A stretch of 47,542 nucleotides of DNA, taken from Gammaproteobacteria bacterium (GTDB lineage: Bacteria; Pseudomonadota; Gammaproteobacteria; Steroidobacterales; Steroidobacteraceae). The stretch spans positions 1 to 47,542 of the forward strand of contig JAHFSF010000001.1 in NCBI GenBank assembly GCA_023265875.1, read 5' to 3'. Shown piece after piece: positions 1-45,493 of the stretch. The translations under genes and the position numbers were made by a program. The notes beneath the pieces are model-generated. The model was not told the DNA's origin and made no database searches. It saw nothing but the letters and a program-made list of their open reading frames with translations. Position 1 is the first letter of the stretch; the number at the start of each line of letters is the position of its first letter.

Positions 1-58
1 CCGTGACGTTCGATGTCCTGCTCTCCGACCATGCGATCAGCGCCACCGCAAGGAGGAT

Positions 59-132
59 TGGAGCGGGTGATGGGAATCGAACCCACGTTAGCAGCTTGGG
101 AAGCTGCAGTTCTACCATTGAACTACACCCGC
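59..132 (-). tRNA. tRNA-Gly (anticodon CCC)
   Basis: The reverse complement reads GCGGGTGTAGTTCAATGGTAGAACTGCAGCTTCCCAAGCTGCTAACGTGGGTTCGATTCCCATCACCCGCTCCA. It has a 7-bp acceptor stem GCGGGTG/CACCCGC, a GGTTCGATTCC T-arm, anticodon stem GCAGC/GCTGC with loop TT-CCC-AA, and an encoded CCA. Confidence 0.9.
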
Positions 133-137
133 CGGGA

Positions 138-1181: not shown

Positions 1182-1245
1182 ATCCCCTCCAATGGAAGCG
1201 CCGGCCAATATACTACCGCGTTCGCTGACGTGTACATTCAACGCC

Positions 1246-2850: not shown

Positions 2851-2873
2851 GGATCCCAGGGCCCGTCATCGGC

Positions 2874-4028: not shown

Positions 4029-4108
4029 TTGCCTCCCCCCTCGGGATGCCCCGGCCACGGCGCAACCCGCACAGCCTAGCGAAACCGTGAACTACTTCAC
4101 ACTTTGGC

Positions 4109-4136
4109 TTGACATAAGCCGCGCCGCGCGCATAAA
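4109..4136 (+). promoter_or_regulatory. candidate sigma70 promoter TTGACA-N16-CATAAA for the alpha-hydroxyacid dehydrogenase/trmB unit
   Basis: TTGACA at 4109-4114 and CATAAA at 4131-4136, about 30 nt upstream of ATG 4165. Sequence match only. Confidence 0.4.
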
Positions 4137-4164
4137 GGCCGTCCAGGCAACAGGATCCGGCTGA

Positions 4165-5307: not shown

Positions 5308-6005
5308 TCGCGGACGCTCCCGGCGGCGACGGCAGGCGGCAGCCGATCCGCAGTTACGTGCTGCGCGGCGGCCGGATCACGAACGCGCAGCGGCGTGCAC
5401 TCGATGAGTTGTTGCCGCGCCGGGGGCTGCCGTTCGCACCCGCGCTGCTCGACCTCGATGCCGTCTATGGCCGCAGCGCGCCGCGCGTGATGGAAATCGG
5501 CTTCGGCAATGGCGCGACGCTGATCGAACTCGCCGCGTCCCGGCCCGGCACGGATTTCCTCGGTGTCGAAGTCCATCCGCCCGGCATCGGGCAATTGCTG
5601 CTCGGCATCGAGGCGCGCGGCCTGGCCAATGTCCGCGTGATCGCCCACGACGCGGTCGAGGTCCTGCGGCACCAGATCCCGCCCGCATCGCTCGACGAAG
5701 TGCTGCTGTACTTTCCCGATCCCTGGCCCAAGAAGCGCCATCACAAGCGGCGCATCGTGCAGGCGGCATTCGCCGCACTCGTGGCCAGCCGCCTGAGGCC
5801 CGGCGGCACGCTGCGCCTCGCGACCGACTGGGAGCCTTATGCAGAGTGGATGCTCGAGGTGCTGAACGCCGAGCCGGCGCTGCTCAATGCCGCAGCGAAC
5901 AGGCGCTGGATCGAGCGGCCGCCCGGCCGCGGCTCAACGCGCTTCGAGGCGCGCGGGCAGCGGCTCGGTCACCGGGTCTTCGACCTGGAGTACCGGCGCC
6001 TCTGA
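5304..6005 (+). CDS. trmB: tRNA (guanine46-N7)-methyltransferase
   Basis: IRSYVLRGGRITNAQ, MEIGFGNG SAM motif and YFPDPWPKKRHHKRR signature. The ATG overlaps the upstream stop (ATGA). Confidence 0.9.
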   Translation: MIADAPGGDGRRQPIRSYVLRGGRITNAQRRALDELLPRRGLPFAPALLDLDAVYGRSAPRVMEIGFGNGATLIELAASRPGTDFLGVEVHPPGIGQLLLGIEARGLANVRVIAHDAVEVLRHQIPPASLDEVLLYFPDPWPKKRHHKRRIVQAAFAALVASRLRPGGTLRLATDWEPYAEWMLEVLNAEPALLNAAANRRWIERPPGRGSTRFEARGQRLGHRVFDLEYRRL

Positions 6006-6013
6006 AAAGGGCT

Positions 6014-6069
6014 GTAAAGGGGACGCACCCCTTTACCTTTAGCCTTTGTAAAGGCGTGCGTCCCCTTTA
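6014..6069. terminator. composite inverted repeat / likely bidirectional terminator between convergent trmB and marC
   Basis: Local hairpin GTAAAGGGG-ACGCA-CCCCTTTAC (6014-6036) is followed by T-rich CTTTAGCCTTT. In addition, a 14-nt perfect long-range inverted repeat TAAAGGGGACGCAC (6015-6028) / GTGCGTCCCCTTTA (6056-6069) encloses CCTTTAC/GTAAAGG. Confidence 0.55.
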
Positions 6070-6681
6070 GAAGGCTCCGCTCAAGCCGTCGATCATGAAC
6101 TGCACGGCGAGCGCCGCGAGCACGACGCCCGCGAGCCGGCTGACGACATGGGCTCCGGTCACGCCCATGACCCGCATGACCGCCGGCGTCAGCCGCAACA
6201 GGCCGTAGGTGATTGCGAGCACCAGCACGACGACCCCGAACAGCCCAACCGCGAGCAGCGGCTCCGGCCTTGGCGCGCCGAAGGTCAGCAGCACGATCGC
6301 GATCGCGCCGGGTCCGGCGATGAACGGGAACGCAAGCGGAAACACGGAGATGTCCGCGCGCTTCCTGCTCTCGACTTTTTCCTCGGAGGTCACGCGCGTG
6401 CCGGACTCGCGCGCAAAGACCATCTCGAGCGCGATCAGGAACAGCATCACGCCGCCCGCGATGCGGAAGGCGTCGATGCTGATGCCCATCGTGTGCAGGA
6501 ACCAGGCGCCGCCCAGCGCGAATACCAGCAGCACGACGCCGGAGACGATGACGGCCTTCGCCGCCATGCGCCGGCGGAAATCCTCGGCCCCCTCGGTCAG
6601 CGCGGCAAACAGCGGCACCAGCGTGATCGGCTCCACCACGACAAAGAACAGGACAAAGAACTTCAGCAGCTCATCGATCAT
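6067..6681 (-). CDS. MarC-family (UPF0056) integral membrane protein
   Basis: About 200-aa polytopic membrane protein. N-terminal FVVVEPITLVPLFAALT and FPLAFPFIAGPGAI motifs are typical of MarC/YhgN. Confidence 0.8.
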   Translation of the reverse strand: MIDELLKFFVLFFVVVEPITLVPLFAALTEGAEDFRRRMAAKAVIVSGVVLLVFALGGAWFLHTMGISIDAFRIAGGVMLFLIALEMVFARESGTRVTSEEKVESRKRADISVFPLAFPFIAGPGAIAIVLLTFGAPRPEPLLAVGLFGVVVLVLAITYGLLRLTPAVMRVMGVTGAHVVSRLAGVVLAALAVQFMIDGLSGAF

Positions 6682-8071
6682 CGGATTTCACCGGCGCCTT
6701 GCCTGCCGCGACCACCGCGTGCCCATCGAGGATCCCCGTGCGCATCAGCCAGACCAACAATAGCAGGCCGGGAATGCTGAGCGCCGCCGTGTAGGTGAAG
6801 AACACCGGATATCCGATGGCGTCGACGACGAATCCGGAGGTGCCTTCGAGCAGCTTGCCCGGCAGCGCGTACAGCGAGGAAAAGAGCGCGTACTGCGTCG
6901 CCGTGTAGCGCGTGCTCGTCAGGCTCGACAGGAACGCGATCAACGCCGTGCCATGCACGCCCTGGGCCAGGCTGTCGAGGCTGTTGACGAGCGCGAGCCC
7001 GATGACCGTGGGCGAGCCGGTCGTTGCGAGCAGCGAGAACCCCAGGTTCGACAGCATGACCAGGCCGCTGCCGAGAAACAGCGCGCGACGCAGCCCGAAT
7101 CTCGCAATGACGGCGCCGCCCACCACGACGCCCAGCATCGAGATCGGCAGCCCGATGGCCTTCACGATCGTCGCGATCTGGATCAGCGTGTAGCCATGAT
7201 CGATGTAGAACGGGTTCGCCATCGAGCCCATCGTGAATTCGGTCAGGCGATAGCTGCCGACCAGCAGCAGCGTCAGGATCGCGATGCGGCCGCCGTAGCG
7301 GGCGAAGAAATCCACCAGTGGACAGATCACGGCGCCGATGAATGTGGCCCCGAATTCGCGCAGCGAGCCCGGCCAGTGCGCCTTGCGCTCGAGCCAGTCG
7401 ACGACCCGCGCCTCGCGCTCCGCCGTATCGCGCGAGACATCCGCCGGCGGCTCGCGCACGAGGAGCGTCGTGACGATGCCGACGCCGGCGAGCGCCGCCA
7501 TCGTCATGTAGCTGGCCGTCCAGCCATAGCCTGCGGCAATGCTGAGTGCGCCGGCGCCGCCGGTGATCAGGGCGGCGCGATATCCGATCTGGTAAGCCGC
7601 GGCCATCGCGCCCTGCATTTCCACCGGTGCCGATTCGATGCGCCATGCGTCCACCGCGATATCCTGGGTCGCCGAGCAGAACGCGAGGAACAGGGCGCCC
7701 AGGGCGATCTGCAGCACGCCCGTGGACGGGTCGCTGGTTGCCAGGTTGACGAGTCCGAGCGCGATGCCGGCCTGCGCCACGAGCATCCAGCTGCGCCGTC
7801 GCCCGAGCCACGCGAACAGGAGCGGAATGCGGGCACGATCAACGACCGGCGACCACAGGAACTTGACCGCATAGACGAGACCGACCCACGCCAGCATGCC
7901 GATCGTCGCCCGCTCGATCCCTGCCTGGCGCAACCACGCCGACAGGGTCTGGAACACCAGGTAGAACGGCAGTCCGGCCGAGAATCCCAGGAACAGCATC
8001 GACAGCACCCGCGCCTGGCCATAGATGCGAAGCGCCTGCCACCATCCGCGCGGCCGGCCGTCCGTGGTCAC
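6671..8071 (-). CDS. ampG: AmpG-family muropeptide MFS permease
   Basis: WWQALRIYGQARVLSMLFLGFSAGLPFYLVFQTLSAWLRQAGI is a typical AmpG N-terminus. Start assigned to GTG 8071, which overlaps the xthA stop (GTGA). ORF 6671..8227 is longer, but its 5' part lies inside xthA. Confidence 0.75.
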   Translation of the reverse strand: MTTDGRPRGWWQALRIYGQARVLSMLFLGFSAGLPFYLVFQTLSAWLRQAGIERATIGMLAWVGLVYAVKFLWSPVVDRARIPLLFAWLGRRRSWMLVAQAGIALGLVNLATSDPSTGVLQIALGALFLAFCSATQDIAVDAWRIESAPVEMQGAMAAAYQIGYRAALITGGAGALSIAAGYGWTASYMTMAALAGVGIVTTLLVREPPADVSRDTAEREARVVDWLERKAHWPGSLREFGATFIGAVICPLVDFFARYGGRIAILTLLLVGSYRLTEFTMGSMANPFYIDHGYTLIQIATIVKAIGLPISMLGVVVGGAVIARFGLRRALFLGSGLVMLSNLGFSLLATTGSPTVIGLALVNSLDSLAQGVHGTALIAFLSSLTSTRYTATQYALFSSLYALPGKLLEGTSGFVVDAIGYPVFFTYTAALSIPGLLLLVWLMRTGILDGHAVVAAGKAPVKSDDR

Positions 8072-8835
8072 AGTTCGTAATCCATCGTCAACGGGGCGTG
8101 ATCGGAAAACCACGTATCCCTGTAGATCGAGGCGGCACGCGCCCTGCCTGCGAGCGAAGGACTCGTGATCTGGTAGTCGATGCGCCAGCCGACGTTCCTG
8201 GCCCGGGCCTGACCGCGATTGGACCACCAGGTGTACTGCTCCGGCCTCGGATCGACCTCGCGGAATGCATCCACCCAGCCGAACTCACCGAACACGCGGT
8301 CGAGCCAGGCCCGCTCCTCGGGCAGGAATCCGGAATTCTTCTGGTTGGCGCGCCAGTTCTTCAGGTCGATGGGCTGGTGCGCGATGTTGACGTCGCCGCA
8401 GAACACGTAATCCCGCCGGCGCCGCCCAAGGCGCCGCAGGTGCGGCAGGAAGGCTTCGAGAAAGCGCATCTTGGAGGCCTGGCGTTCCGGTCCGGACGAA
8501 CCTGACGGCAGGTACAGGGACACGACGGAAAGCCGCCCGAACTGCAGTTCGAGATAACGGCCCTCGCGATCGAATTCGCTGACACCGAAACCGCGGACCA
8601 CGCGGTCGGGCTGCCGCTTCGAGAATGCCGCGACTCCGCTGTATCCCGGCCGCTCCGCCCCGAAATAGTGGCAGTGATAACCGGCCGGACGGAATCCTGC
8701 GTCCTCGAGCTGCTGCTCCTGGGCCCGGGTCTCCTGCAGACAGACGACGTCGGCAGTCTGCGCGGGCAGCCATTCGAACAGGCCCTTGCGGGCCGCGGAG
8801 CGGATGCCGTTGCAGTTGAGCGTGATGATGCGCAT
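8068..8835 (-). CDS. xthA: exodeoxyribonuclease III
   Basis: [14 protein letters not shown]...[10 protein letters not shown] and the C-terminal SDHAPL motif. Trimmed to ATG 8835. Confidence 0.9.
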
Positions 8836-8887: not shown

Positions 8888-9538
8888 ATGCGGGCCCACC
8901 AGAAGGAATTCATCGAGCTGATACTGGCGCGCGAGGTCCTGCGCTTCGGGCAGTTCACGCTGAAATCCGGCCGCGTGAGCCCGTATTTTTTCAATGCCGG
9001 GCTCATCAATGACGGTGGCGCCCTTGGCAAACTCGGCGACTGCTATGCGCAGGCGATCATCGAATCAGGCACCAGGTTCGACATGCTGTTCGGACCCGCC
9101 TACAAGGGCATCCCGCTCGCGACCGCGACCGCAATCGCCCTCGCCGCCCGTCACGGCCGCGACGTACCGGTGGCGTTCAACCGCAAGGAGGCCAAGGCCC
9201 ACGGCGAGGGCGGCAGGCTGATCGGCGCACCGCTTACCGGGCGCGTGCTGATCGTCGACGACGTCATCACCGCCGGCACGGCAATCCGCGAGTCAATCGA
9301 CATCATCCGCAATGCCGGTGCGAGCCCGGCGGGGGTTGCATTGGCGCTCGACCGCCAGGAACGCGGCCAGGGTCCCTTGTCGGCGGTCCAGGAGGTTCAG
9401 ACGGCGTTCAGCATTCCGGTGATAAAAATCATCACGCTCGCCGACCTGATCGAGCACCTGGAAACCGCCGGCCGCCCGGAAGAACTGGCAAGTCTGCGGA
9501 ACTACCGGTCCAGTTACGGTGTCGACGGCGAAGCGTGA
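8888..9538 (+). CDS. pyrE: orotate phosphoribosyltransferase
   Basis: [20 protein letters not shown] and PRPP-binding [16 protein letters not shown] 8888 sits after GAGGAAGGG. Confidence 0.9.
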
Positions 9539-9596
9539 CACGAGTCAGGTTTGACCGGTTGGATACGGGCAGAATATGTCGCGAGAGGTGCCACGG

Positions 9597-10241
9597 ATGA
9601 AAGCCTGGACATTGAAGATCCTGTTGCCGGCCCTGGTGCTGGCGCTGCTGGCCGGCGCCGCCGATGCGCAGTCGGGCACCAAGAAACTGTATCGCTGGGT
9701 CGACAAGAGTGGCCAGGTCCACTATGGCGACAGCATTCCGCCGGAGTACGCCGACCAGGATCGCGAAGTGCTGAACCGCGAGGGCGTTGCCGTGGGCAGC
9801 GAGCAGGGCACGTTGACCGCCGAAGAAGCACGCGCCAGGGCCGAAGCGGACAAGGCTGCGAAAGAGGCGCAGAAACAGAAGCTGCGCGATCGCGTGCTGT
9901 TGCAGACCTACCAGTCGGTCGAAGAGATCGAGGTGTTGCGTGACCGCCGCCTCGAGCTGGTCGATTCGCAGCTCATGATCCAGGAACAGTCGCTTGCGAC
10001 CCTGCGCGCCAAGCAGGTGCAGCACATGAAACAGGCGACGCGCTACCAGCCGATCAACAAGGACCCCAAGGCCCAGCCGCTGCCGGAGGAACTGTCACTC
10101 GACCTCCACCGCTCGGCCTCCGACATCGAGACCCAGCAGAAGAATCTGGACAAGAAGAAGCAGGAACGCGAGACGATCCGCTCGACCTTCGAGGCGGATA
10201 TCAAGCGATTCAGGGAACTGAAGGCCGTCGCCCCGCACTAG
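9597..10241 (+). CDS. DUF4124 domain-containing periplasmic protein
   Basis: Signal peptide [24 protein letters not shown], then [21 protein letters not shown] (DUF4124 signature) and a coiled-coil tail. Confidence 0.7.
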
Positions 10242-16481: not shown

Positions 16482-17626
<1,145 letters not shown>

Positions 17627-17722
17627 GAATCTCCGCCGATCCCGTAAACTTGCACGGCGTTGACAACCGAGCGCGATGATACGCGCCCCGTTCGCGGACA
17701 ACACTTTGCCGGAGCACCAGTC

Positions 17723-17773
17723 ATGCGGATTCGCATCGTGATCCCGAATGGCACGGTGATCCAGACTCCTTGA
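17723..17773 (+). CDS. 16-codon upstream ORF ([16 protein letters not shown]) overlapping the ftsY TTG start
   Basis: ATG 17723 lies 8 nt after GGAG (17711-17714). Its TGA (17771-17773) overlaps the only available in-frame ftsY start, TTG 17770-17772, which has no SD of its own. Confidence 0.3.
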
Positions 17774-18720
17774 ATCGCCCCGACGAAGGCACCGCGGCTG
17801 GCGGCTTCCTCGCGCGCCTGCGCGGGAAAGTCAATCGCGGCACCTCCTGGCTCGGCGAGCTGCTGTCCGGCCGCAGGATCGATGCCGAACTGCTCGAGGA
17901 ACTCGAGACCCGGCTGCTCACCGCGGACGTCGGCGTCGAAGCGACCAGGGTGATCCTGGACGAACTTCGTCGCGGCGTCGCGCGCGAGGAACTTGCGGAT
18001 GCCGGCGCGCTTGCGGGCGCATTGCGTTCCGCCCTCACCGGGATACTCGCGCCCGTCGCACAGGCGCTGATCATCGACCGGAACCGAAAGCCCTTCGTCA
18101 TCCTGGTGGTCGGCGTGAACGGCTCCGGAAAGACCACCACGATCGGCAAGCTGGCGCGGTGCCTGAAGAAGGATGGCCTGAAGGTCATGCTCGCGGCAGG
18201 CGACACGTTTCGCGCGGCGGCCGTCGAGCAACTGACGATCTGGGCCGAGCGCAACGAGGTGCCGATCATCGCGCAGGCCGCCGGGGCCGACCCGGCCGCG
18301 GTCGTGTTCGACGCAATGGAAGCGGCCAGGGCGCGCAGCATCGATGTATTGATCGCGGACACGGCTGGCCGGCTGCATACTCAGTCTCACCTGATGGACG
18401 AACTAGCGAAGATCGCCAGGGTCATGAAGCGTCTGGATCCCACGGCGCCACACGAGGTCCTGCTGGTGCTGGATGCGAGCCTTGGCCAGAACGCGATCCG
18501 CCAGGCCGAGCAGTTCCACCGGGCAGTCGGCGTCAGCGGCATCGTCGTCACCAAGCTCGACGGCACGGCGAAGGGCGGAATCGTCATCGCGATCGCGAGG
18601 CGTTTCGGCCTGCCAATCCGCTTCGTCGGCGTTGGCGAACAGCTGGCGGATTTCGGTATCTTCGACGCCGGCGCCTATGTGGATGGCCTGTTGCGGCCCG
18701 CGCCAGGGACTGCCCGGTGA
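17770..18720 (+). CDS. ftsY: signal recognition particle receptor FtsY
   Basis: [22 protein letters not shown] and [10 protein letters not shown] GTPase motifs. TTG is the only in-frame start after the upstream stop at 17777-17779. Confidence 0.85.
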
Positions 18721-32617: not shown

Positions 32618-33391
32618 TCAGTGTTTCAGCCGATAGCCGGTCCTGAAGATCAACGCCACCAGCGCCAGGCAGGCCAGCAGGAATACCAGCGTCATCGCAA
32701 GACTGACGGAGACGCCGACATCGGAGGTGCCGAAGAAGCTCCAGCGGAAGCCGCTGATCAGGTACACGACGGGGTTGAACAACGTCACCGTGCGCCAGGC
32801 CGGCGGCAGCATGTCGATCGAGTAGAAGGCGCCGCCAAGGAAAGTCATCGGCGTCACGACCAGCGTGGGTATCAGCTGCATCTGCTCCCAGTTCTTCGCC
32901 CAGATGCCGATGATGAAGCCGAACAGGCTGAACGTGACCGCCGTCAGGGCCATGAACGCGATCATCCAGGCCGGGTGCAGGATGCCGATCGGCACGAAGA
33001 ACGAGGCCGTCGCCAGGATGATCAAGCCGAGCAGGAATGATTTCGTCGCGGCCGCGCCCACGTAGCCGAGCACGATCTCGAATGGCGACACCGGTGCGGA
33101 CAGCAATTCGAAGATGGTGCCGGTGAACTTCGGGAAGTGAATGCCGAATGAGGCGTTCGAGATGCTCTCGGTGAACAGGGACAGCATGATGAGCCCGGGC
33201 ACGATGAAGGCGCCGTAAGGCACGCCATTGACCTCGCTCATGCGTCCGCCGATGGCCGCACCGAACACGACGACGAAGAGTGAAGTCGTGATGACGGGTG
33301 TCAGCACGCTCTGCAGCAGCGTGCGCAGGAACCGCGCCATCTCGAAGCGGTAGATCGCCCAGGTGCCATGACGATTGAAGGCGACGCTCAT
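32618..33391 (-). CDS. ABC-2 type transporter permease (divergent YadH paralog)
   Basis: 6-TM ABC-2 permease, collinear with 38779..39591 (e.g. [15 protein letters not shown] vs FIAPGLIMMSVITNS; [17 protein letters not shown] vs TPMTYLGGVFYSVSLLP). Confidence 0.8.
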
Positions 33392-34326
33392 TGCAGTGCC
33401 GTCGCACGGTCGCTGACGAGACTGACGAAGATTTCCTCCAGCGAACTCTGCTTCGTGTTCAGGTCCCTGTAATTGATCCCGAGTTGCTCCAGTTTGCGCA
33501 GCAGGGCCGGGATGCCGGTGTGCTCCTCGACCGCATCGAACGTGAATTCCAGCTCATGGCCATTCGCGTTCAGCGCCAGCGACCACTCGCCCAGTTCGGT
33601 CGGGATTGCCGCAAGGGGCTCCTGGAGGTTGAGCGTCAGCTGCCGCTTGCCGAGCTTCTTCATGAGCCGGGCCTTGTCCTCGACGAGGATCAGCTCGCCG
33701 TGATTGATGACGCCGATGCGGTCCGCCATTTCCTCCGCCTCGTCGATATAGTGCGTCGTCAGGATGATGGTGACGCCCTGGTCCCGCAGGCGACGCACCA
33801 GCCCCCACATGTCGCGGCGCAGCTCCACGTCGACTCCGGCAGTGGGCTCGTCCAGGAACAGGATCCGCGGCTCGTGGGACAGGGCCTTCGCGATCATGAC
33901 CCGGCGCTTCATGCCACCGGAGAGCGTCATCATGATGTCGTTGCGACGGTCCCAGAGGGACAGGTCGCGCAGCACCTTTTCCACGTGCCGGGGATCCGGG
34001 GCATGGCCAAAGAGCCCGCGGCTGAAGCTCGCGGCTGCCCGGACGGTTTCGAAGGCTTCGGTCACCAGTTCCTGGGGCACCAGCCCGATGCGCGACCTGG
34101 CGGCACGGTAGTCGCGCACGATGTCATGGCCGTCCACGAGCACCCGGCCCGACGTGGGCGTGACGATCCCGCAGACGATGTTGATGAGCGTCGTCTTGCC
34201 GGCACCGTTCGGCCCGAGCAAGGCGAAGATCTCGCCTTCGCGGATATCGAGGTCGATGCGCTTCAGCGCATCGCCACCGGTTGCATACCGCTTGGTCAGG
34301 CCCGCAATGGAGACGATCGCGCGCAC
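33388..34326 (-). CDS. ABC transporter ATP-binding protein (YadG paralog)
   Basis: Walker [10 protein letters not shown], signature LSGGMKRR, Walker [15 protein letters not shown] start. The stop overlaps the permease ATG (ATGA). Confidence 0.85.
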
Positions 34327-35108: not shown

Positions 35109-35269
35109 GGGGTTCTCCTTCGGTCCGGGACCCGTCCCGCGAAACCGTTCGACCGTTCCCAGCCTTGCGCCGGGAATCCGCAAAGCGATATTGCCACCGA
35201 CATACGTGTTGGTGCCACCCTGGCGCATGCGCAGTTGACGGCGGCAGTGTCGCGGACGTTAATGTCCGG

Positions 35270-37378
35270 GTGAGCGTGATTCCCCTGCGCAAGCTGTGCG
35301 TCGCGGTCGTCCTGATCGCAGGGGCATCCCCTGCCCTTGCTGCGGGCAAGGCGACACTCACTGCTCGCGAGGTCGAGTTCGAAGGCCTCGGCTTCCGCGA
35401 TCTCCAGCTGACCTGGTCCGCGGCGCGTGATCACGCGAACCACGTCACGGTGCACGCCGGCCGCATCGAGGGCCCGGACGCAATCGGCCCGTTATCAGGG
35501 CTCGCCATCGACTGCGCGGTACTCGAGGTCTCGGGCGACCTGTTGAACTGCAGCAAGGGCCGTCTGTCCGGCGCGCTCGGCTCGCTGGGCGGCCAGGACA
35601 CGAACTTCAGCGCGCGCACCCGGCCTGACGGCAGCCTGAAGCTGCATCTCGACGCTCTCGCATTCGCCGGCGGACGAGCCATCGTTGACCTGCGGCTGGA
35701 CGGATCCCGCTGGCGCATGAATTCCACGCTCGCGGACATCGATCTCGAAGCGCTCGCGCAGCTCGCGCGGCCATGGTTCCAGTTGCCGGACGGCTACACG
35801 GTCGCCGGTCGAGCGTCGGGCCAGGCACAGGCAAGCGGCCAGCGCGACAAGGTCGGCTCACTCGACACCGACATCGCGATTGCACGACTGGATTTTTCCG
35901 ATGCGGCCGGCACGCAGGCCGGCGAAGCGCTCGGCGGGCGGTTGCACCTGAAACTCGAAACTGAAGCCTCCGGCGAGTTCGCGACGACCGGCACCCTCGG
36001 CCTTGCGGGCGGCCAGGCTTACAGCGATCCCGTGTTCCTGGACTTCGGCGCCCATCGCATGGACATCGACTTCAGCGGCAGGCTCGCGGCGGATGCCAAG
36101 CGCTTCGATGCAAGCGGGTTCTCGCTGGTCCATGCAGGCGTCGCCAGGGTCTCCGGTTCCGCCGCGTTCGATTTCGCGGCCGAATCGCTGTTGCAGGATG
36201 CAAAGCTGCACATTGCCGGGCTCGACCTTGCAACCGCGCTCCCTGTCTACATTCAGCCATACCTCATTGCCACTTCCCTCAAGGATGTCGAGGGACAGGG
36301 CAACGTCCACGGCGATGTCGAGATCACGGCGGCCTCACCGAGCCGGATTTCGCTGATGCTCGAGCGGGTGATCCTGGACAGCCCGACCGGCTCGCTTTCC
36401 GTCAGCGGGCTCGGCGGCGACTTCAACTGGTTCGACGACGACAACTACAGCCGGCTCGCCGGCAAGATCGATGATGCCGCCTTCCATTCGCGCCTGGCCT
36501 GGGAATCGGCGAGCCTCTGGGGCATCGAGATCGGCGCCGTAGAATTGCCGTTCACGACCAGCGGCCGCCACTTCCGCTTGCTGGAGCCGGCATTCCTCCC
36601 GATCTTCGACGGCGGTCTCGCCATCGAGACCCTGCGCGTGCGCCATGCCGGCACCGGGCAGATGTACGTGCGATTCGACGCCGGCGTGCGCCCGATCAGC
36701 ATGGCGCTCCTGAGTCGAAGCCTTGGATGGCCGGAATTCTCAGGCACGCTCGCCGGCAGCATCCCGGCGCTGACGATGTCACAGGGAATCGTGACGCTCG
36801 GCGGTAATCTCGAGGCCGCCGTATTCGACGGCCGCATCGTCGCCCGTGACCTGCAGCTTCGCGATCCCCTGGGCAAGTTCCCGCGCCTGTACGCCAGCAT
36901 CGACGTGGACAACCTGGACCTGAAACTCGTAACCAGGACGTTTTCATTCGGAACGATTACGGGGCGCCTGTCCGGCCGCATCGAGGATCTCGAGACCTTC
37001 AACTGGATGCCCGAGTCTTTCGACGCGCGCTTCTACACCCCTCCAGGAGACGAGTCACCACACCGGATCAGCCAGCGTGCGGTCACCAATCTTTCGAGCA
37101 TCGGCGGTGGCAGCGGCGGCGGCGTCGCGGCGGCGTTGCAGAGCGGATTCCTGAAATTCTTCGACAATTTCCGTTATGACCGCCTTGGCCTGAATTGCCG
37201 CCTTGTCAATGACGTCTGCATGATGAGTGGCGTTGAACGCGTTGGCGGCGGCTACTACATCGTCAAGGGATCGGGGCTGCCCCGCATAAACGTCGTCGGC
37301 AGCCAGTCCCGTGTCGCCTGGACGCGGCTCGTGCGCCAGCTCGCAAATATCATGGAATCCGGGATCGTGATCGAGTGA
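35270..37378 (+). CDS. ydbH: YdbH-like AsmA-family intermembrane lipid-transport protein
   Basis: About 700-aa protein with an N-terminal anchor (SVIPLRKLCVAVVLIAGASPALA) and a long beta-rich body. It is followed by a YnbE/YdbL-like gene, as in the E. coli ydbH-ynbE-ydbL operon. GTG 35270 start is uncertain. Confidence 0.6.
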   Translation: MSVIPLRKLCVAVVLIAGASPALAAGKATLTAREVEFEGLGFRDLQLTWSAARDHANHVTVHAGRIEGPDAIGPLSGLAIDCAVLEVSGDLLNCSKGRLSGALGSLGGQDTNFSARTRPDGSLKLHLDALAFAGGRAIVDLRLDGSRWRMNSTLADIDLEALAQLARPWFQLPDGYTVAGRASGQAQASGQRDKVGSLDTDIAIARLDFSDAAGTQAGEALGGRLHLKLETEASGEFATTGTLGLAGGQAYSDPVFLDFGAHRMDIDFSGRLAADAKRFDASGFSLVHAGVARVSGSAAFDFAAESLLQDAKLHIAGLDLATALPVYIQPYLIATSLKDVEGQGNVHGDVEITAASPSRISLMLERVILDSPTGSLSVSGLGGDFNWFDDDNYSRLAGKIDDAAFHSRLAWESASLWGIEIGAVELPFTTSGRHFRLLEPAFLPIFDGGLAIETLRVRHAGTGQMYVRFDAGVRPISMALLSRSLGWPEFSGTLAGSIPALTMSQGIVTLGGNLEAAVFDGRIVARDLQLRDPLGKFPRLYASIDVDNLDLKLVTRTFSFGTITGRLSGRIEDLETFNWMPESFDARFYTPPGDESPHRISQRAVTNLSSIGGGSGGGVAAALQSGFLKFFDNFRYDRLGLNCRLVNDVCMMSGVERVGGGYYIVKGSGLPRINVVGSQSRVAWTRLVRQLANIMESGIVIE

Positions 37379-38087: not shown

Positions 38088-38774
38088 TCAGGCGCCGGCG
38101 CCCGGGCGCTCCGGCTCGATCAGTTTGGGCCCGTCGTTCCTTGGCGCATTGACGAGCCGGCTGACCGGCCACGCCTGCAGTGCCTCGCTCCTGAATGGCC
38201 CGAGCATCTGCGACAGCCTCGCGGCGTCCGCGTAGGCCGGGTCCAGCCAGCGGTCCCAGTCCTGTTCCGCCAGTAGCGCCGGCATCCGGTCGTGAATCCG
38301 TCGTATGGACTCAGATGCGTCCGTCGTCACGATCGTGCAGGACTCCAGCGGCGATTCAGCGGCCGGATCCTTCCAGCGCTCCCACAGTCCTGCGAATGCA
38401 ATCGGTCGCCCATCACCCATGCGGATGAACCAGGGCTGCTTGCCACCCGGTGCAACCTGCCATTCGTACCAGCCGTCGGCCAGCACCAGGCAGCGGCGGC
38501 GCTTGAAGGCATCGCGGTAGGCGGGTTTCCCGGCCAGCGTCTCGGCGCGGGCGTTGATCATGCGGCTGCCGATCGCCCGTTCTTTGGCCCAGCGCGGCAC
38601 CAGCCCCCAGTGCAGCATCGCGAATTCCCGCACGCCGCCACCGGCGATGCGCACTGCCGGCACCGGCTGGGTCGGGGCGATGTTGTAGCGGGGTGCAAGT
38701 TCCGGCATGGCGTCGAGCGCGAAAGTCCGCTTTACCGCCTCAGCCGGCGAGAAGAACGCATAACGCCCGCACAT
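38088..38774 (-). CDS. yedK: SOS-response-associated peptidase (SRAP, abasic-site crosslinking protein)
   Basis: MCGRYAFF N-terminal catalytic Cys2, NIAPTQ, and MINARAETL motifs. Confidence 0.9.
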   Translation of the reverse strand: MCGRYAFFSPAEAVKRTFALDAMPELAPRYNIAPTQPVPAVRIAGGGVREFAMLHWGLVPRWAKERAIGSRMINARAETLAGKPAYRDAFKRRRCLVLADGWYEWQVAPGGKQPWFIRMGDGRPIAFAGLWERWKDPAAESPLESCTIVTTDASESIRRIHDRMPALLAEQDWDRWLDPAYADAARLSQMLGPFRSEALQAWPVSRLVNAPRNDGPKLIEPERPGAGA

Positions 38775-38778
38775 CGCC

Positions 38779-39591
38779 CTACTCCCGGATGCCCGTGCCC
38801 CGGTTCATCAGCGTCACGACGACCGTGAACATCACGATCGCGAATGTTCCCATGATCGCGAATGCGACACCGAGGCTGACGTCGCTGGCGCCCAGGAATC
38901 CATAACGGAAGGCGTTGACCATGTACAGGATCGGGTTGGCGTAGGACATCGTCTCCGCCCAGTCCGGCAGCAGGGACACCGAATAGAACACGCCGCCCAG
39001 GTAGGTCATCGGTGTCAGCACGAAGGTCGGAAACCACGAGATCTGGTCGAAATTCTTCGCGAAGATCGCGTTGAAGAAGCCGCCCAGTGAAAAGACGACG
39101 GCGGTCAGCAGCACCGACGCGACCACCAGCAGCGGATGATGAACGGGCACGTGCGTGAAGAACAGGGACACGAGCGTGACCACCAGCCCTACCAGCAGTC
39201 CCCGCATCACGCCGCCGGAAATGTAGCCAAGCACGATCAACCAGTTCGGCAGCGGCGCGACCAGCAGCTCCTCGATGTGCTTGCCGAACTTGGCGCCGAA
39301 GAAGCTCGACACGACGTTGCCGTATGAATTGGTGATGACCGACATCATGATCAGGCCGGGCGCGATGAACTGCATGTAGTCATAGCCGCCCATCTGCCCG
39401 ATGCGGCGACCGATCAGGCTGCCGAAGATGATGAAGTACAGCGTGGCCGTCACGACCGGCGGCAACAGGGTCTGGCCCCAGATCCGGATGATGCGGCCGT
39501 ATTCGCGCCGCACGATCGTTTCAAGGCCGATCCGGTGGGCGCGCGCCAGTGAAGGCTCGCCGCTTCGCCCGAGCGTGCGTGTCGTCGCCAT
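38779..39591 (-). CDS. yadH: ABC-2 transporter permease YadH
   Basis: Near-collinear by eye with E. coli YadH (IWGQTLLPPVVTATLYFIIFGSLIG; FIAPGLIMMSVITNSYGNVVSSFFGAKFGKHIEELLVAPLP). Confidence 0.85.
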   Translation of the reverse strand: MATTRTLGRSGEPSLARAHRIGLETIVRREYGRIIRIWGQTLLPPVVTATLYFIIFGSLIGRRIGQMGGYDYMQFIAPGLIMMSVITNSYGNVVSSFFGAKFGKHIEELLVAPLPNWLIVLGYISGGVMRGLLVGLVVTLVSLFFTHVPVHHPLLVVASVLLTAVVFSLGGFFNAIFAKNFDQISWFPTFVLTPMTYLGGVFYSVSLLPDWAETMSYANPILYMVNAFRYGFLGASDVSLGVAFAIMGTFAIVMFTVVVTLMNRGTGIRE

Positions 39592-39592
39592 C

Positions 39593-40528
39593 TCAGCTCC
39601 CCCCCGCGCCGGATGCGCCCCTGCTCTCGACGAGGCGCATGAACAGCTCCTCGAGCCGATTGACCTTGTTGCGCATGCTGACCACCTCGTGGCCGCTTTC
39701 GGTCAGCTTGCCGAAGATGGCGTTCAGTCCCTGTTCCTTCGAGACGTCGATTTCCAGCGTGTGATCGTCGGTCATGCGCGTCACGTAGCCGGGCAGGGAT
39801 GGCGGGTCGCTGACCGGCTCGCGGAAGTTCAGCACGAAGGTTTCCTGGCTCAGCTTGCCGATCACCCTCGCCATCGTGTCGTTCTCGATGATGCGGCCGT
39901 CGTCGATGATCGCGATGTTGCGGCACAGGCTCTCGGCTTCCTCGAGGTAATGCGTCGTCAATATGATCGTCGTGCCCTGCCCGTTGATCTCGCGCAGGAA
40001 ACCCCACATGCTGCGCCTGATCTCGATGTCCACGCCCGCGGTCGGCTCGTCGAGGATCAGCAGTCGCGGCTCGTGCACCAGTGCGCGCGCGATCATCAGG
40101 CGGCGTTTCATGCCGCCCGACAGCGAGCGGGCAATGTGATCGCGCTTTTCCCAGAGCTGGAGCTGGCGCAGGTAGTGTTCGGCGCGCTCGAGTGCCTTTC
40201 GCCGGGGGAGCCCGTAAAAACCCGCCTGGTTCACGACGATCTTGAAAATCTTCTCGAACTGGTTGAAGTTGATTTCCTGCGGCACGACCCCGATGCATGA
40301 TTTCGCGCGCGCGAGTTCATGCTCGATGTCGTAGCCGAAAACCTGCACGCTGCCGCTGGTCTTGGTGACGAGTGACGTGATGATTCCGATCGTGGTCGTC
40401 TTGCCGGCGCCATTCGGGCCAAGCAGCGCGAAGAAACCGCCTTCGTCGACGTCGAGGTCGATCCCGCGGAGCGCCTTCACGCCATTGCGGTAGGTCTTGG
40501 TCAGGCCGCGGATCGAAAGCGCCTTCAT
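39593..40528 (-). CDS. yadG: ABC transporter ATP-binding protein YadG
   Basis: Walker [29 protein letters not shown]. Trimmed to ATG 40528 (GGAG SD). Confidence 0.85.
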   Translation of the reverse strand: MKALSIRGLTKTYRNGVKALRGIDLDVDEGGFFALLGPNGAGKTTTIGIITSLVTKTSGSVQVFGYDIEHELARAKSCIGVVPQEINFNQFEKIFKIVVNQAGFYGLPRRKALERAEHYLRQLQLWEKRDHIARSLSGGMKRRLMIARALVHEPRLLILDEPTAGVDIEIRRSMWGFLREINGQGTTIILTTHYLEEAESLCRNIAIIDDGRIIENDTMARVIGKLSQETFVLNFREPVSDPPSLPGYVTRMTDDHTLEIDVSKEQGLNAIFGKLTESGHEVVSMRNKVNRLEELFMRLVESRGASGAGGS

Positions 40529-40618
40529 GGAACTCCGGACAGGAAACGGCACGGCTTCGGGCAGGCACGAAGCCTAAACTCCGCCCTGACTGGCGGCAAC
40601 CGCCGTCGGCGTCGGCGA

Positions 40619-41308
40619 TCAGGCGGTCAGGTTACGCCGGGGTTTGCGCTGCAGTGCCTGCAGCCGGGCGCTTTCGGCGCCCTGGATCTGCAGCCCGAGT
40701 TGCTGCAGCACATTGACCGACCTGTCGTCGGGAGCGGCGGCGCAGCCCTCGAACTGCAGCCAGAATCGCGTTCGCGAGCCGAAACGCGCCGTGAGCGCGG
40801 GTGCGACGCGCCTCGCCAGGCCATCGATCGCGGCGACGGGCAGCGCGGCGAGCGCTGCGATCGTCGTCCTCGAGGTGCCGAACACGAGTTGTGCGCCCGG
40901 TGCCCGGGTCTGCGCGAGGTGCCAGGCCAGCATGATGGCGGTGCGGGAGAAGGCAACGATGCGCTCGTCCGCCGCGGATACCGCCTGCGCATCCTGTACT
41001 GCGCCGGCCGCAGCGACCTGGCTCTCCCAGTAGCTGCCATCCCCGAATCGCAGGTCGAACAGTGCGTAAGGCAGCCGTTCGCACAGCCGTTGCTGCGCCA
41101 CGGGATCGATCAGCGCGTTGACGGCCCTAGGCGGAAGCCCGTTGATCAGCCGCAAACGGCCCTCCTCGGCCAGTTCCGCGGCGAGGTCCAGGAAGGCGCG
41201 GTTGATCGAGCACAAGGCCGCACGCGTGGCAGGGTCCAGCAGTGAACGCTGGGACCAGTCCGCGAGACCGACCGGTGGCGCGAGTGCGAGCGGTTGCTGA
41301 CGGCTCAT
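40619..41308 (-). CDS. tandem FlhD-like protein (two FlhD-type helical repeats plus FlhD-like C-terminal tail)
   Basis: ATG 41308 follows GGGGAG. Residues 31-90 (LCSINRAFLDLAAEL...INGLPPRAVNALIDPVAQQRLCERLPYALFDLRFGD) and 116-180 (IVAFSRTAIMLAWHLAQ...FGTSRTTIAALAALPVAAIDGLARRVAPALTARFGS) each resemble E. coli FlhD IYDINLSYLLLAQRL...[35 protein letters not shown]. The tail VNVLQQLGLQI...RKPRR resembles DDLQQIHTGIM...RKKRA. Confidence 0.5.
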   Translation of the reverse strand: MSRQQPLALAPPVGLADWSQRSLLDPATRAALCSINRAFLDLAAELAEEGRLRLINGLPPRAVNALIDPVAQQRLCERLPYALFDLRFGDGSYWESQVAAAGAVQDAQAVSAADERIVAFSRTAIMLAWHLAQTRAPGAQLVFGTSRTTIAALAALPVAAIDGLARRVAPALTARFGSRTRFWLQFEGCAAAPDDRSVNVLQQLGLQIQGAESARLQALQRKPRRNLTA

Positions 41309-41368
41309 GGCATTTCTCCCCGATGACGTGCCATTACGCATAGGGCCGGCTCTTGGACCGGCTTCCTG

Positions 41369-41396
41369 TTTACTGGTAAAAAAATACCAGTAAGAT
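41369..41396. promoter_or_regulatory. perfect palindrome TTACTGGTA-N6-TACCAGTAA overlapping candidate divergent promoters (operator)
   Basis: Arms are at 41370-41378 and 41385-41393 with an AAAAAA spacer. On the + strand, TTTACT (41369-74)-N16-TAAGAT (41391-96) lies about 24 nt before ATG 41420. A mirror-image TTACTG-N15-TAAACA sits on the - strand. This is the most AT-rich patch in the local region. Confidence 0.5.
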
Positions 41397-41419
41397 CACG
41401 CTGCGTCAAGGCGGCAACC

Positions 41420-41998
41420 ATGCGTATCACCGACGACCGCTACACCCGGGACCGGCTGCGGCTGGACCTGGCCCTGCGCCTGATCGGGCACGAGGCGCGC
41501 ACGCGCACGATCCGCAGCTGGACCGGCCTGACCGACGACCGGATCCGCAAGCTGTACCGGTCCTACGTCGCGGACGCTGGCCGCCGGGAAGTGCGCCGCC
41601 ACCGCGGCAAGTCGCCGCGCCAGAACGCCTTCTTCATGCGCAATGCCGGCATCCGCCGCGAAGCGGCCGGACTGGCGACGCTGCTGTGCATCCTTGGACT
41701 GTTGCGACGCGAGGCCAGCGCGTCCGCGGGCGCCATGGACCAGCTGCGCTGGGGTGAAAGTTTCTGCGAGGCGTATGAGACATTTGCGAGCCTGTTCGAG
41801 CACCCGCAACTGTCTTTCGAGCATGCGTGCCAGCTGATGCGCTCGCTGGAAAAGCAGAACGAACTCTGCCTAGACGACTGCGACGGCTGCGGCAGCCTGC
41901 TGGTCGTGCTGCGATATGCGGAGAAACCGAAGGCGTGCGAGTTCTGCGCAACGACGCGGCCACCCGCGCGTCCGGGCCTGTCGGTAGGCGACTGCTAG
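41420..41998 (+). CDS. FlhC-family transcriptional regulator-like protein
   Basis: LRLDLALRLIGHEARTRTI vs FlhC DIQLAMELITLGARLQML. DDRIRKLYRSY...RHRGKSP vs RGRLIKLYKELRGSPPPKG. Zn knuckle CDGC-x15-CEFC vs FlhC CxxC-x16-CxxC. Strong GC3 coding signal. Confidence 0.65.
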   Translation: MRITDDRYTRDRLRLDLALRLIGHEARTRTIRSWTGLTDDRIRKLYRSYVADAGRREVRRHRGKSPRQNAFFMRNAGIRREAAGLATLLCILGLLRREASASAGAMDQLRWGESFCEAYETFASLFEHPQLSFEHACQLMRSLEKQNELCLDDCDGCGSLLVVLRYAEKPKACEFCATTRPPARPGLSVGDC

Positions 41999-42031
41999 AA
42001 TGACGCGTCTGCAGTCCAGGAACCGCTACCG

Positions 42032-42982
42032 ATGCGTCCGGATCCGGAGCGGCCCAATGTCTTTTCCGGGCCGCATGTCGATCGGCTGAAGTTTTCGCAA
42101 TTCGATGCGGAGACGGTTGCGCGTGCCATCGCAGAGGGTGCCGCTCGCCTGGTGCCGGTATGGCGCTCGCGCTGCCCCGTGATACGCGAGCCGTCGCCAA
42201 GCGCCCTGCTGCTGGAATTCGGCGCCGGGCCGTTTGCAGGCATCGATGCCGATGAGTTGATCCTGCTCGGCGAATTCGAGGGTCGTGCCGTATTCACGAC
42301 CGAGGTGCTCACGGATGCGCCGCCAGCGCTCGCAGGCGGCGTCGAATTTGCCGACCTGCGGCTTGCGGCGGGACTGTTGTCGCACGACGAGGCGGGATTG
42401 CTCGCCTATGCGCGCGCCATGGTCTCGTTCCGGCATCGTCATCGTTTCTGCGGCAGTTGCGGCGCGCCGACCCGCCCGCAGCGCGCTGGCCGCATGATGA
42501 CCTGCACGAATGAGGCCTGTGGCACGGAGTTCTTCCCGCGCGTGGATCCGGCGGTCATCGTGCTGGTCACGCACGGCGATCATGCTTTGCTCGGGCGCCA
42601 GCCTGGCTGGCCCGCGGGCCGTTATTCGGCCATCGCGGGATTTGTCGAGCCCGGCGAAAGCCTCGAGGATTCCGTGCGCCGTGAGGTGCTCGAGGAGACC
42701 GGCATCGAGATCGGCGCCATGAACTACCAGTCGTCGCAGCCGTGGCCATTCCCCCGCTCGCTGATGCTCGGCTTCCGCGGCGAGGCCGTTTCCACCGCGA
42801 TCCACCTCGGTGACGAGGAACTCGAGGACGCCCGCTGGTTCAGCCGGGCCGAGATCGCCGCGGGCACGCCCCTGCTGCCGTTCCGCCAGTCCATCGCATT
42901 CCGGCTGATCGAAGAATGGTATGACGCGGACGCCAGGCGCCCGCTGGCCGAGGAACACGCCGTGCACGGCCGCCGGTCCTGA
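42032..42982 (+). CDS. nudC: NAD(+) diphosphatase (NADH pyrophosphatase)
   Basis: Zinc ribbon FCGSCGAPT...CTNEACGTEFFPRVDP followed by Nudix box GFVEPGESLEDSVRREVLEETGI and the SQPWPFPRS motif. Confidence 0.9.
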   Translation: MRPDPERPNVFSGPHVDRLKFSQFDAETVARAIAEGAARLVPVWRSRCPVIREPSPSALLLEFGAGPFAGIDADELILLGEFEGRAVFTTEVLTDAPPALAGGVEFADLRLAAGLLSHDEAGLLAYARAMVSFRHRHRFCGSCGAPTRPQRAGRMMTCTNEACGTEFFPRVDPAVIVLVTHGDHALLGRQPGWPAGRYSAIAGFVEPGESLEDSVRREVLEETGIEIGAMNYQSSQPWPFPRSLMLGFRGEAVSTAIHLGDEELEDARWFSRAEIAAGTPLLPFRQSIAFRLIEEWYDADARRPLAEEHAVHGRRS

Positions 42983-44410: not shown

Positions 44411-45493
44411 ATGATGAAATCGATCATCGTCGACAAGATCGCATCGGTCACGCAGGCCTGCGGACTCTCGCACGAACTGCGGATATCGACCGACATCCCC
44501 TGCGACGAAGGCGTAGTGCTCGCGGTCGAGATCCTGACCGACAAGGCGCAGTACAACACGCTCGAGCTGACCAGCGGCCGGATGGCCAAGCTCGCGCGCG
44601 GCAATGTCGTGGTCGGCGCACTCGGCCATCGCAAGGCGCTGTTCGGCTACTCCGGCCACCTGCCGGAGAGACTGGCGGCCGGCGACGTCATCCAGGTGCT
44701 GAACATCGGCGGCGTGCTCGGCATCTGTGATTCCGCGAATCCCGAGAAAGGCCGGCCCTTCGATTGCAGGGTGCTCGGTGTCGTGCTGCACTTTCCCTAC
44801 CTCGGGGAACGCATCGGCGTGCCGGCGCGGGTCGGCATGCGCAAGCTGGACCTCGCTGCGCCGCTGGCCACGTCTGGCGTGCCGGTGGTCGCGCTCGCCG
44901 GCACCTGCATGGAGGCCGGCAAGACCGCCGCCGCCTGCGCGATGATCTCCCGCATGCGCCATCGTGGCCTGACGGTGGACGCCTTCAAGGCAACCGGCGT
45001 CTCGCTGCGACGCGACATCCTGGCGATGGAGGATTCCGGCGCGCGCCGTTCGATGATCTTCACGGACTTCGGCATCGTCACGACGACGCCGAAATGCGGG
45101 CCGGCGTTGACGCGCACGATGCTGACCGCAATGGCCGCTGGCGGGCCCGACGTCATCGTGTTCGAGCTGGGCGACGGCATACTTGGCGCTTACGGCGTCG
45201 AGGCGATCCTCGAGGCGCCGGACATCCGCCAGGTCCTGACCGCCGTCGTGCTGTCGGCCAACGATCCCGTCGCCGCCTGGGGCGGCGTCAAGCTGCTGCG
45301 CGATCGCTTCGGCATCGAGCCCGCAGTCGTCACCGGGCCCTGCACCGACAACTCGGTCGGCGTGGACATCGTCCGCGAACAACTGGGCGTCCCGGCATTC
45401 AATGCGCTGACGAGCGGCGCGGCGCTGGGTGACTGCGTGATCTCTGCCACCGGCCTCGATGCCGTCGCGCATTCGAAGGAGCTCGAACAATGA
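44411..45493 (+). CDS. uncharacterised 360-aa protein: N-terminal beta-rich domain plus C-terminal P-loop-like (SIMIBI/BioD-like) domain
   Basis: Strong GC3 coding signal. Motif ALAGTCMEAGKT (about aa 161-172) is followed by FKATG, TDFG and VFELGDGILG. The stop overlaps the argC ATG (ATGA). I do not recognise the family. Confidence 0.7.
   Translation: MMKSIIVDKIASVTQACGLSHELRISTDIPCDEGVVLAVEILTDKAQYNTLELTSGRMAKLARGNVVVGALGHRKALFGYSGHLPERLAAGDVIQVLNIGGVLGICDSANPEKGRPFDCRVLGVVLHFPYLGERIGVPARVGMRKLDLAAPLATSGVPVVALAGTCMEAGKTAAACAMISRMRHRGLTVDAFKATGVSLRRDILAMEDSGARRSMIFTDFGIVTTTPKCGPALTRTMLTAMAAGGPDVIVFELGDGILGAYGVEAILEAPDIRQVLTAVVLSANDPVAAWGGVKLLRDRFGIEPAVVTGPCTDNSVGVDIVREQLGVPAFNALTSGAALGDCVISATGLDAVAHSKELEQ

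Follow-up and report, generated by a model that had tools for sequence, protein, structure and literature searches.

FlhDC-type regulators are known in two roles, the master control of flagella and the activation of conjugative transfer, and in each of them the FlhD-like subunit is small and dimerises. Can such a regulator also take the form of two divergent chromosomal genes, one of them encoding a doubled D subunit, among neighbours of housekeeping type? The question is raised by a 47,542-nucleotide (nt) stretch of DNA from a soil gammaproteobacterium of the family Steroidobacteraceae (assembly GCA_023265875.1, contig JAHFSF010000001.1, positions 1 to 47,542; G+C content 67%), referred to here as the window. 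Two outward-facing open reading frames (ORFs), one of 192 amino acids (aa) at 41420..41998 on the forward strand (+) and one of 229 aa at 40619..41308 on the reverse strand (-), are separated by 111 nt. An earlier interpretation made from the letters alone, hereafter the sequence-only reading, had described the first product as FlhC-like and the second as containing two successive FlhD-like cores, and both ORFs were found at the coordinates it gave. We consider it probable that the two genes specify a heteromeric transcription factor of the FlhDC type, with an FlhD pseudo-dimer made of a single chain, which would control both flanking operons through a palindromic dyad in the shared control region.

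The FlhC likeness of the 192-aa protein is real. On its own, the protein matched the Pfam FlhC family (PF05280) with an E-value of 7e-5 and 23.1 bits, compared with a cut-off of 27 and over the C-terminal 60 residues only, and it scored 23.2 bits against the NCBIfam FlhC equivalog NF009365, whose cut-off is 216. Its database relatives number 3,319. An alignment of 38 homologues of the FlhC-like protein, down to 53% identity (alignment A2), has a near-invariant N-terminal block, MRITDDRYTRDR...HEARTxTIRxWTGLTDDRIRKLY, and PF05280 matched 32 of the 38 sequences. Compared with sequences of the Protein Data Bank (PDB), the A2 profile found FlhC of Cupriavidus necator (8j56_C) at 2.3e-6 and FlhC of E. 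coli (2avu_E) at 0.0048, over residues 15-185. The AlphaFold model of the protein had a predicted local distance difference test score (pLDDT) of 85 and a predicted template-modelling score (pTM) of 0.80, and when it was compared with the PDB by Foldseek, only FlhC chains were significant (8j56_C, 8j56_F and 2avu_E; probability 1.00, template-modelling score 0.64-0.78, E 2e-6 to 1e-5). The four-cysteine zinc knuckle proposed earlier was verified with the spacing CDGC-x15-CEFC (C154-x2-C157-x15-C173-x2-C176; 41879..41947, +): among the A2 homologues, C173 and C176 never vary and C154 and C157 almost never do, and the four cysteines align to the CxxC...CxxC region of 8j56_C and 2avu_E. In both fold and zinc site, the 192-aa protein is FlhC-like. 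Because its scores lie below the curated thresholds, it is a member of a distant subfamily and not an FlhC orthologue. A relationship between the N-terminal part of FlhC and FlhD was also considered, and none was found when the two were compared.

For the divergent gene, the ATG at 41308 is favoured over the one at 41341, because it is at the former that all homologues begin, with M(N/S)RQQPLAL. The 229-aa protein alone had no match in Pfam or NCBIfam, and the profile of its close relatives (alignment A1, 72-89% identity) found no FlhD among PDB sequences, only spurious lectin-repeat matches. An exhaustive profile search placed it in a family of ~210-aa proteins with 548 clusters at 50% identity, the members of which, fragments aside, are 200-245 aa long and matched over their full length. 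Among 78 members of this family (alignment A3), 34 matched Pfam FlhD (PF05247), with a best E-value of 5.5e-7. The family profile was then compared by hhalign with an FlhD profile that combined enterobacterial FlhD with copies from Cupriavidus, Ralstonia, Burkholderia, Caballeronia, Pseudomonas and an IncC plasmid. Its N half (residues 26-103; 41000..41233, -) matched FlhD residues 4-84 with a probability of 94.8% (P 5.3e-8, score 43.7), and its C half (residues 119-213; 40670..40954, -) matched FlhD residues 12-105 with a probability of 72% (P 3.3e-5, score 31.7). The second alignment, which extends through FlhD residue 105, bears out the FlhD-like C-terminal tail that had been assigned to the second copy. 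The two halves also resemble each other, as residues 53-104 matched residues 140-193 in a profile-profile comparison with a probability of 44.7% (P 2.3e-4, score 25.6). In 100 column shuffles per comparison (mean 9.4-9.6, standard deviation ~2), none reached the observed score, the maxima being 22.3 for the N half against FlhD, 16.9 for the C half against FlhD and 17 for half against half. Reversed-profile controls scored 10-16, and the FlhC-like profile, used as a negative control against FlhD or either half, scored only 12-17.

Matches to single family members agree with the profiles. A plain FlhD hidden Markov model (HMM) matched the N half of 37 family representatives, the C half of 64 and both halves of 15. 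In two distant members, P0340 and P0370, the C half scores above the curated Pfam threshold for FlhD (33.8 and 35.2 bits, respectively), and almost the full length of both proteins aligns collinearly with the window clade (E 1.5e-12 and 6e-14, respectively). By eye, and compared with E. coli FlhD, both halves contain the core G-(L/M)-x-helix-turn-helix-(F/A)RF/RW-x3-5-W. Several observations weigh against this assignment. The route to FlhD is transitive through the wider family, and the window protein and its close relatives carry no signal of their own: a narrow-clade profile gave P-values of 0.015 and 0.11 against FlhD and 0.13 for half against half, which are not significant although the alignment register was the same. 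The AlphaFold model of the 229-aa protein is mediocre (pLDDT 66.6, pTM 0.67), and its Foldseek search returned no match at E <= 0.001; the FlhD chains 5hxg_B, 1g8e_A, 2avu_B and 8j56_E were listed with probabilities of 0.23-0.87 (0.80-0.87 for matches with a root-mean-square deviation of 1.2-2.6 A), and since their E-values are poor (~4), they lend weak support. A transitive route through a family is the normal basis for assigning remote homology. We accordingly describe the 229-aa protein as a predicted tandem of FlhD-like domains, with a likeness that appears real and is visible only at the family level. In short, the sequence-only reading was upheld for both proteins. As a separate observation, 3 of the 78 A3 members had a weak Pfam match (up to 3.3e-5) to DUF2857, the BisC family of ICEclc.

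How consistently do the two genes occur together? Two motifs from the N-terminal part of the FlhC-like protein were used to scan species-representative genomes of GTDB, and at least 590 loci matched. The best 80 of these, nearly all metagenome-assembled and labelled Steroidobacteraceae or unclassified Gammaproteobacteria, were kept and combined with eight loci from the contig index, which has no entry for the window's own 229-aa protein. In 85 of the resulting 88 loci, the tandem-FlhD gene is divergent from the FlhC-like gene and lies ~130-170 nt away; of the other three, two are interrupted by the end of a contig, and the third is an artefact of parsing. Compared with three relatives (73-79% identity in the tandem-FlhD protein and 91-92% in the FlhC-like protein), the FlhC-like gene had a ratio of nonsynonymous to synonymous substitution rates (dN/dS) of ~0.06 and the tandem-FlhD gene one of ~0.15, both values being rough, with dS near saturation. 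Values for distant loci were excluded, since the start codons assigned automatically to them were wrong. Both genes are under purifying selection, and they form an obligate divergent pair in the window's clade. All database names in both families are 'hypothetical protein'. In two loci from long-contig metagenome assemblies, L035 and L038 (~9224-9664), the match to the tandem-FlhD profile begins only at profile position 71 or 91; their tandem-FlhD gene is truncated or frameshifted, or the assembly is in error.

This strict pairing, which extends from the 85 loci to five further genomic contexts (L097, L099 and L101-L103, described below), would fit a putative complex between the D-type and C-type subunits. 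Alternatively, the 229-aa protein might be a decoy or anti-activator, a fused FlhD look-alike that sequesters the FlhC-like protein, with no active DNA-binding complex formed. It is common for FlhDC to be controlled by subunit-binding proteins, and divergent transcription would permit the two genes to be dosed independently. None of the examined loci showed a single-domain FlhD-like partner, which leaves the tandem protein as the sole D-type partner there, and the two genes of L099 are neighbours that run in one direction, as in flhDC. We regard a decoy function as highly improbable.

If the two proteins do form a transcription factor, where would it bind? The 111-nt control region contains a perfect dyad, TTACTGGTA-AAAAAA-TACCAGTAA (41370-41393). 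It is conserved at a distance of ~51 nt upstream of the ATG of the FlhC-like gene, and the window has no other exact occurrence of CTGGT-N8-ACCAG. Its general form is TGG-N10-CCA with an A/T-rich centre. Between lineages, the arms co-vary as the pairs TGGTA/TACCA, TGGTG/CACCA, TGGGA/TCCCA and TGGCA/TGCCA, while the TGG-N10-CCA spacing and the A/T-rich centre are kept. The window itself has ACTGGTA...TACCAGT, and the corresponding sites are TTGGTGGTA...TACCACCAA in locus L006, TTTTGGTGAAATTTCACCAAAA in L096, AATTTGGGAAATTTTTCCCAAATT in L087, TTTTGGTATAAATACGCCAAAA in L100 and ATTGGCAAATATTTGCCAAT in L004. Under a loose definition of the dyad, in a search that covered +/-10 kb per genome in the relatives, an intergenic site was found in 59 of 84 loci (13 kb in total), compared with one site in the other 1.39 Mb. 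In L004 (~55% identity), the regulator genes are separated by 776 bp with a 63-aa ORF (7225-8000), and the dyad occurs there in two near-identical copies, one per gene, of the form ATTGGCAAAT(T/A)TTTGCCAAT at 7289 and 7883; of these, the one on the tandem-FlhD side is 74 nt away from the start codon of that gene, much as in the window, where the distance is 73 nt. The sequence-only reading had noted that the divergent genes share a palindrome, and these comparative data, namely the recurrence among loci, the duplication in L004 and the co-varying arms, mark the dyad as a predicted functional operator. Arms that change in step at a kept spacing of 10 nt are typical of a co-evolving local regulator.

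Other candidates for the site or for further sites were set aside. Allowing up to one mismatch, CTGGT-N8-ACCAG occurs four times in the window, compared with 0.8 expected, and the three additional sites, at 9897, 15099 and 20639, were judged to be chance matches that lie in coding regions and have no A/T-rich centre. The dyad was compared by eye with sites of ArgR (the ARG box), CRP, FNR and NtcA, all of which were dismissed, with half-sites or spacing that differ and arms here that vary between lineages. A sigma-54 promoter reading of TGGTAC was also dismissed, there being no GC at -12. Elsewhere in L004, a 164-aa ORF that has no Pfam match lies between the tandem-FlhD gene and the ABC transporter genes.

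The position of the dyad relative to the predicted promoters bears on how it would act. For the tandem-FlhD gene, a consensus scan gave a promoter-like element at 41381..41409 (-), by consensus match only, which consists of a -35 element TTGACG (41409-41404), a spacer of 17 nt and a TG-extended -10 element TATTTT (41386-41381) that lies inside the dyad; its -35 element matches a CGTCAA(G/C/T)G block conserved across loci. For the FlhC-like gene, a candidate promoter at 41369..41396 (+) was read by eye and is absent from the output of the consensus scan: it would comprise a -35 element TTTACT (TTGACT in most relatives), a 16-nt spacer that coincides with the dyad core, and a -10 element TAAGAT. 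Because the predicted core promoters overlap there, a protein bound at the dyad would affect both.

Two points about the dyad count against the proposed reading. The motif definition fails in 25 of the 84 loci. The dyad lies inside the predicted core promoters and does not abut the -35 element as the class II boxes of SetCD and FlhDC do. It may therefore mark repression, or its conservation may partly reflect overlapping -10 elements. From this position, unlike that of the -35-abutting boxes, binding might activate or repress. Alternatively, the pair might not bind the dyad at all. The dyad might then serve another regulator, or it might have arisen from two extended -10 elements that overlap (TGGTA on either strand); -10 elements of the TGnTA type can indeed be read on both strands within it. 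Neither a global factor nor a -10 box would be expected to show arms that change in step at a kept spacing, the separated genes of L004 each retain a dyad copy of their own, and no other regulator gene is consistently adjacent in the relatives. An unbound dyad appears quite improbable on these grounds.

Between the dyad and the tandem-FlhD start codon lies a stem-loop of the form GCCGG-N8-CCGGC (41345..41362, -). Across 42 loci, compensatory changes were found in four of its five pairs, with 88% of cells paired, and the loop is conserved as CCAAGAG. No Rfam family matched in a scan of 40500-42100. The stem-loop may be a leader RNA element. A second predicted hairpin, AUGGCA...UGCCAU (41307-41334, -), has the Shine-Dalgarno sequence in its loop and the tandem-FlhD start codon in its stem; the AATGGCAC block is conserved, and the folding z-score is only -1.4.

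Which genes might the pair control through this site? The tandem-FlhD gene is followed on its own strand by a co-directional gene set that spans 38088..40552 (-) and comprises genes for an ABC ATPase (39593-40552), an ABC-2 permease (38779-39591) and a SRAP/YedK-like protein (38088-38774). On the other side, the FlhC-like gene is followed by a nudC-like gene with a NUDIX domain and a zinc ribbon (42032..42982, +). These identities come from the Pfam families on record for the counterparts at syntenic positions in relatives. The gap to the next gene is 66-90 nt for the tandem-FlhD gene and 33 nt for the FlhC-like gene in the window, and 17-108 nt and 12-39 nt, respectively, in relatives. Since the gaps are short, each regulator gene probably heads an operon, and the gaps of 17-108 nt make it plausible that the tandem-FlhD gene is co-transcribed with the yadGH-like and yedK-like genes, whose strand it had been said to head. 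Of 86 loci, 76 have an ABC ATPase gene downstream on the tandem-FlhD strand, 71 have a gene for an ABC-2 permease there and 60 a SRAP gene, and 81 have nudC downstream of the FlhC-like gene. The linkage to the exporter survives to ~50% identity of the FlhC-like protein, despite an inserted extra gene, and is also kept in L100, where the D subunit is only ~33% identical. It must be said on the other side that housekeeping synteny, though conserved, is no proof of co-regulation.

The characterised relatives FlhDC, SetCD and AcaCD all control many distant promoters (PMC4344509), which makes it conceivable that the pair acts mainly as master regulator of genes located elsewhere, for instance those of a resident mobile element or of another trait, with a dyad that is autoregulatory only and with the ABC-2, SRAP and nudC genes as mere neighbours. 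The occurrence of the same pair beside Trb/VirB genes (L097) and near relaxase and radC genes (L101-L103) would fit such a role, and the operator search reached only +/-10 kb per genome. No second operator was found in the 47.5-kb window or in the 1.39 Mb of flanks, and the exporter linkage persists to the low D-subunit identity of L100 and across the inserted gene. We consider a purely distant regulon unlikely.

Control of the two flanking operons remains the reading that we favour. The two genes would encode the two subunits of a FlhDC-type heteromeric transcription factor, in which one 229-aa chain would supply what the FlhD homodimer supplies in FlhD4C2; the complex would probably contain two of each protein, equivalent to D4C2. 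The complex would bind the dyad at 41370-41393. Because the dyad overlaps the predicted -10 element of the tandem-FlhD gene and sits within the predicted -35/-10 spacer of the FlhC-like gene, binding would feed back on both regulator genes (autoregulation). Through co-transcription, control might extend to the ABC-2 exporter and the SRAP gene on one side and to nudC on the other.

Among known systems, FlhD4C2 of Enterobacterales and Burkholderiales (2AVU, 8J56) is the natural comparison: it has the same C-subunit fold and Cys4 zinc site, and it is likewise a two-gene module, with a D partner made of helical domains that in the present case are predicted to be FlhD-like. FlhD is a homodimerising single domain of ~105-120 aa, whereas the present D chain of 229 aa has two predicted FlhD-like domains, and canonical flhDC is a co-directional operon, whereas the present genes are divergent and one distant relative (L099) is co-directional. 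FlhD4C2 sites are long inverted repeats, unlike the compact dyad of 16-24 bp found here inside the predicted core promoters. FlhDC binds ~30 bp upstream of the transcription start, and both it and SetCD use class II activation from a box that abuts the -35 element (PMC4344509). By curated cut-offs, operon layout, subunit architecture and context, the pair stands outside FlhC and FlhD. It is homologous to FlhDC-type heteromeric regulators and would work like them.

The context, in particular, speaks to whether the pair could be a flagellar master regulator that acts at a distance as an orthologue of FlhDC in function. The homology to FlhC and FlhD would favour this role, and so would the motility of several Steroidobacteraceae (PMC7966939). 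Pfam scans of 30 other ORFs of the window identified dUTPase, CoaBC, MutM, FtsY, FtsX, with a sigma-70-family factor gene adjoining, a TonB receptor, dehydrogenases and a second ABC-2 pair. Neither these scans nor the families recorded for the syntenic genes of relatives included any flagellar, conjugation or integrase domain; all were of housekeeping type, so that the housekeeping-only context claimed for the window held. A flagellar setting is therefore absent from the 47.5-kb window and the relatives' flanks. Gammaproteobacterial polar flagella are normally headed by FleQ/FlrA-type regulators and are not usually under FlhDC. The cultured members of the family Steroidobacteraceae are either non-motile or carry a single polar flagellum (PMC7966939). 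Together with the scores of the FlhC-like protein below the Pfam and NCBIfam cut-offs and the occurrence of the same pair in type IV secretion and radC contexts, these points render a flagellar role very improbable.

SetCD, AcaCD and SgaCD of SXT/R391 elements, IncA/C plasmids and SGI1 are also non-flagellar relatives of FlhDC, and the present family resembles them in having members beside type IV secretion genes. The D subunits of SetCD and AcaCD are single-domain proteins (88 aa in the IncC plasmid copy) encoded by co-directional genes, in contrast to the divergent tandem described here. They reside on mobile elements, whereas the window copy lies in a core chromosomal locus, and tblastn searches with the 229-aa protein of the window and with P0340 found no match in 72,556 plasmids. 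The SetCD-type box adjoins the -35 element. Relative to the promoters as predicted, the present dyad overlaps the -10 element of one strand and the spacer of the opposite strand. BisDC of ICEclc, an integrative and conjugative element (ICE), is a heteromeric activator in which BisC is a distant FlhC-like protein of the DUF2857 family and BisD is a ParB-domain protein that lacks a detectable FlhD domain (PMC7423338). The present pair shares the heteromeric organisation with a distant FlhC-like subunit and differs in both components: its D subunit is tandem FlhD-like with no ParB match, and its FlhC-like protein and homologues match PF05280, not DUF2857. The full text of the searchable literature yielded no account of a fused or tandem FlhD, an architecture that the sequence-only reading likewise did not know from the literature.

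Beyond the clade of the window, the FlhC-like partner in the five further contexts belongs to the same subfamily (A2 HMM, E 1e-37 to 1e-81). In L097, the pair is divergent and lies beside trbC-virB3-virB4-trbJ-trbL-virB8-virB9-trbI; in L101-L103, it is divergent beside radC, recA-recX and a MobA/MobL relaxase or GmrSD; and in L099, D is followed by C in the same direction. The intergenic regions in contexts of these types carry other dyads. The sequence-only reading had placed the pair outside ICEs, which stands for the window and its clade and does not for some of the distant pairs. As these adjoin Trb/VirB and radC/relaxase genes, the tandem-FlhD family is not free of mobile elements. The module is common to mobile-element and core-chromosome settings, which suggests that the copies in both share a common origin. 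On a wider and more tentative view, which we hold to be possible but do not favour to the same degree, the pair would represent a widespread, undescribed class of two-protein factors (more than 500 D clusters at 50% identity and at least 590 C loci) with an origin among conjugation master activators. In Steroidobacteraceae and their relatives, this class would have been domesticated and would control the ABC-2 exporter, SRAP and nudC genes via a co-evolving TGG-N10-CCA operator. As regards L097 itself, positions 1-8636 hold a complete row of Trb/VirB type IV secretion genes and two DUF6502 genes beside the distant pair, and its intergenic dyads differ, being ATTGGGG-N17-CCCCAAT and GCGTGAC-N10-GTCACGC.

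If these interpretations are correct, a single-chain double FlhD would set the D:C stoichiometry genetically and would offer a simpler system in which to ask how DNA recognition by FlhC depends on the D subunits. A chromosomal copy that is strictly conserved, has a compact operator to itself and lies beside an exporter and DNA/RNA-damage genes would add housekeeping regulation to the family, and the relatives beside type IV secretion genes would make it an example of regulator exchange between mobile elements and their hosts. The assignment would also improve annotation in a common group of soil and freshwater bacteria, in which all members found are now 'hypothetical'.

Some minor features of the window were also recorded. 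A second ABC ATPase/ABC-2 permease pair lies at 32618-34326 (-), ~5 kb from the regulator-linked pair, and L001 likewise has a second such pair (16483-18188). Two ORFs, of 737 aa at 35165-37378 (+) and of 360 aa at 44411-45493 (+), had no Pfam match at E <= 1e-5. Both have counterparts in L001 and L003: those of the first are ~700 aa long and occupy the same position beside DUF1318, and those of the second, of 360 aa and 366 aa, lie among the arginine-biosynthesis genes.

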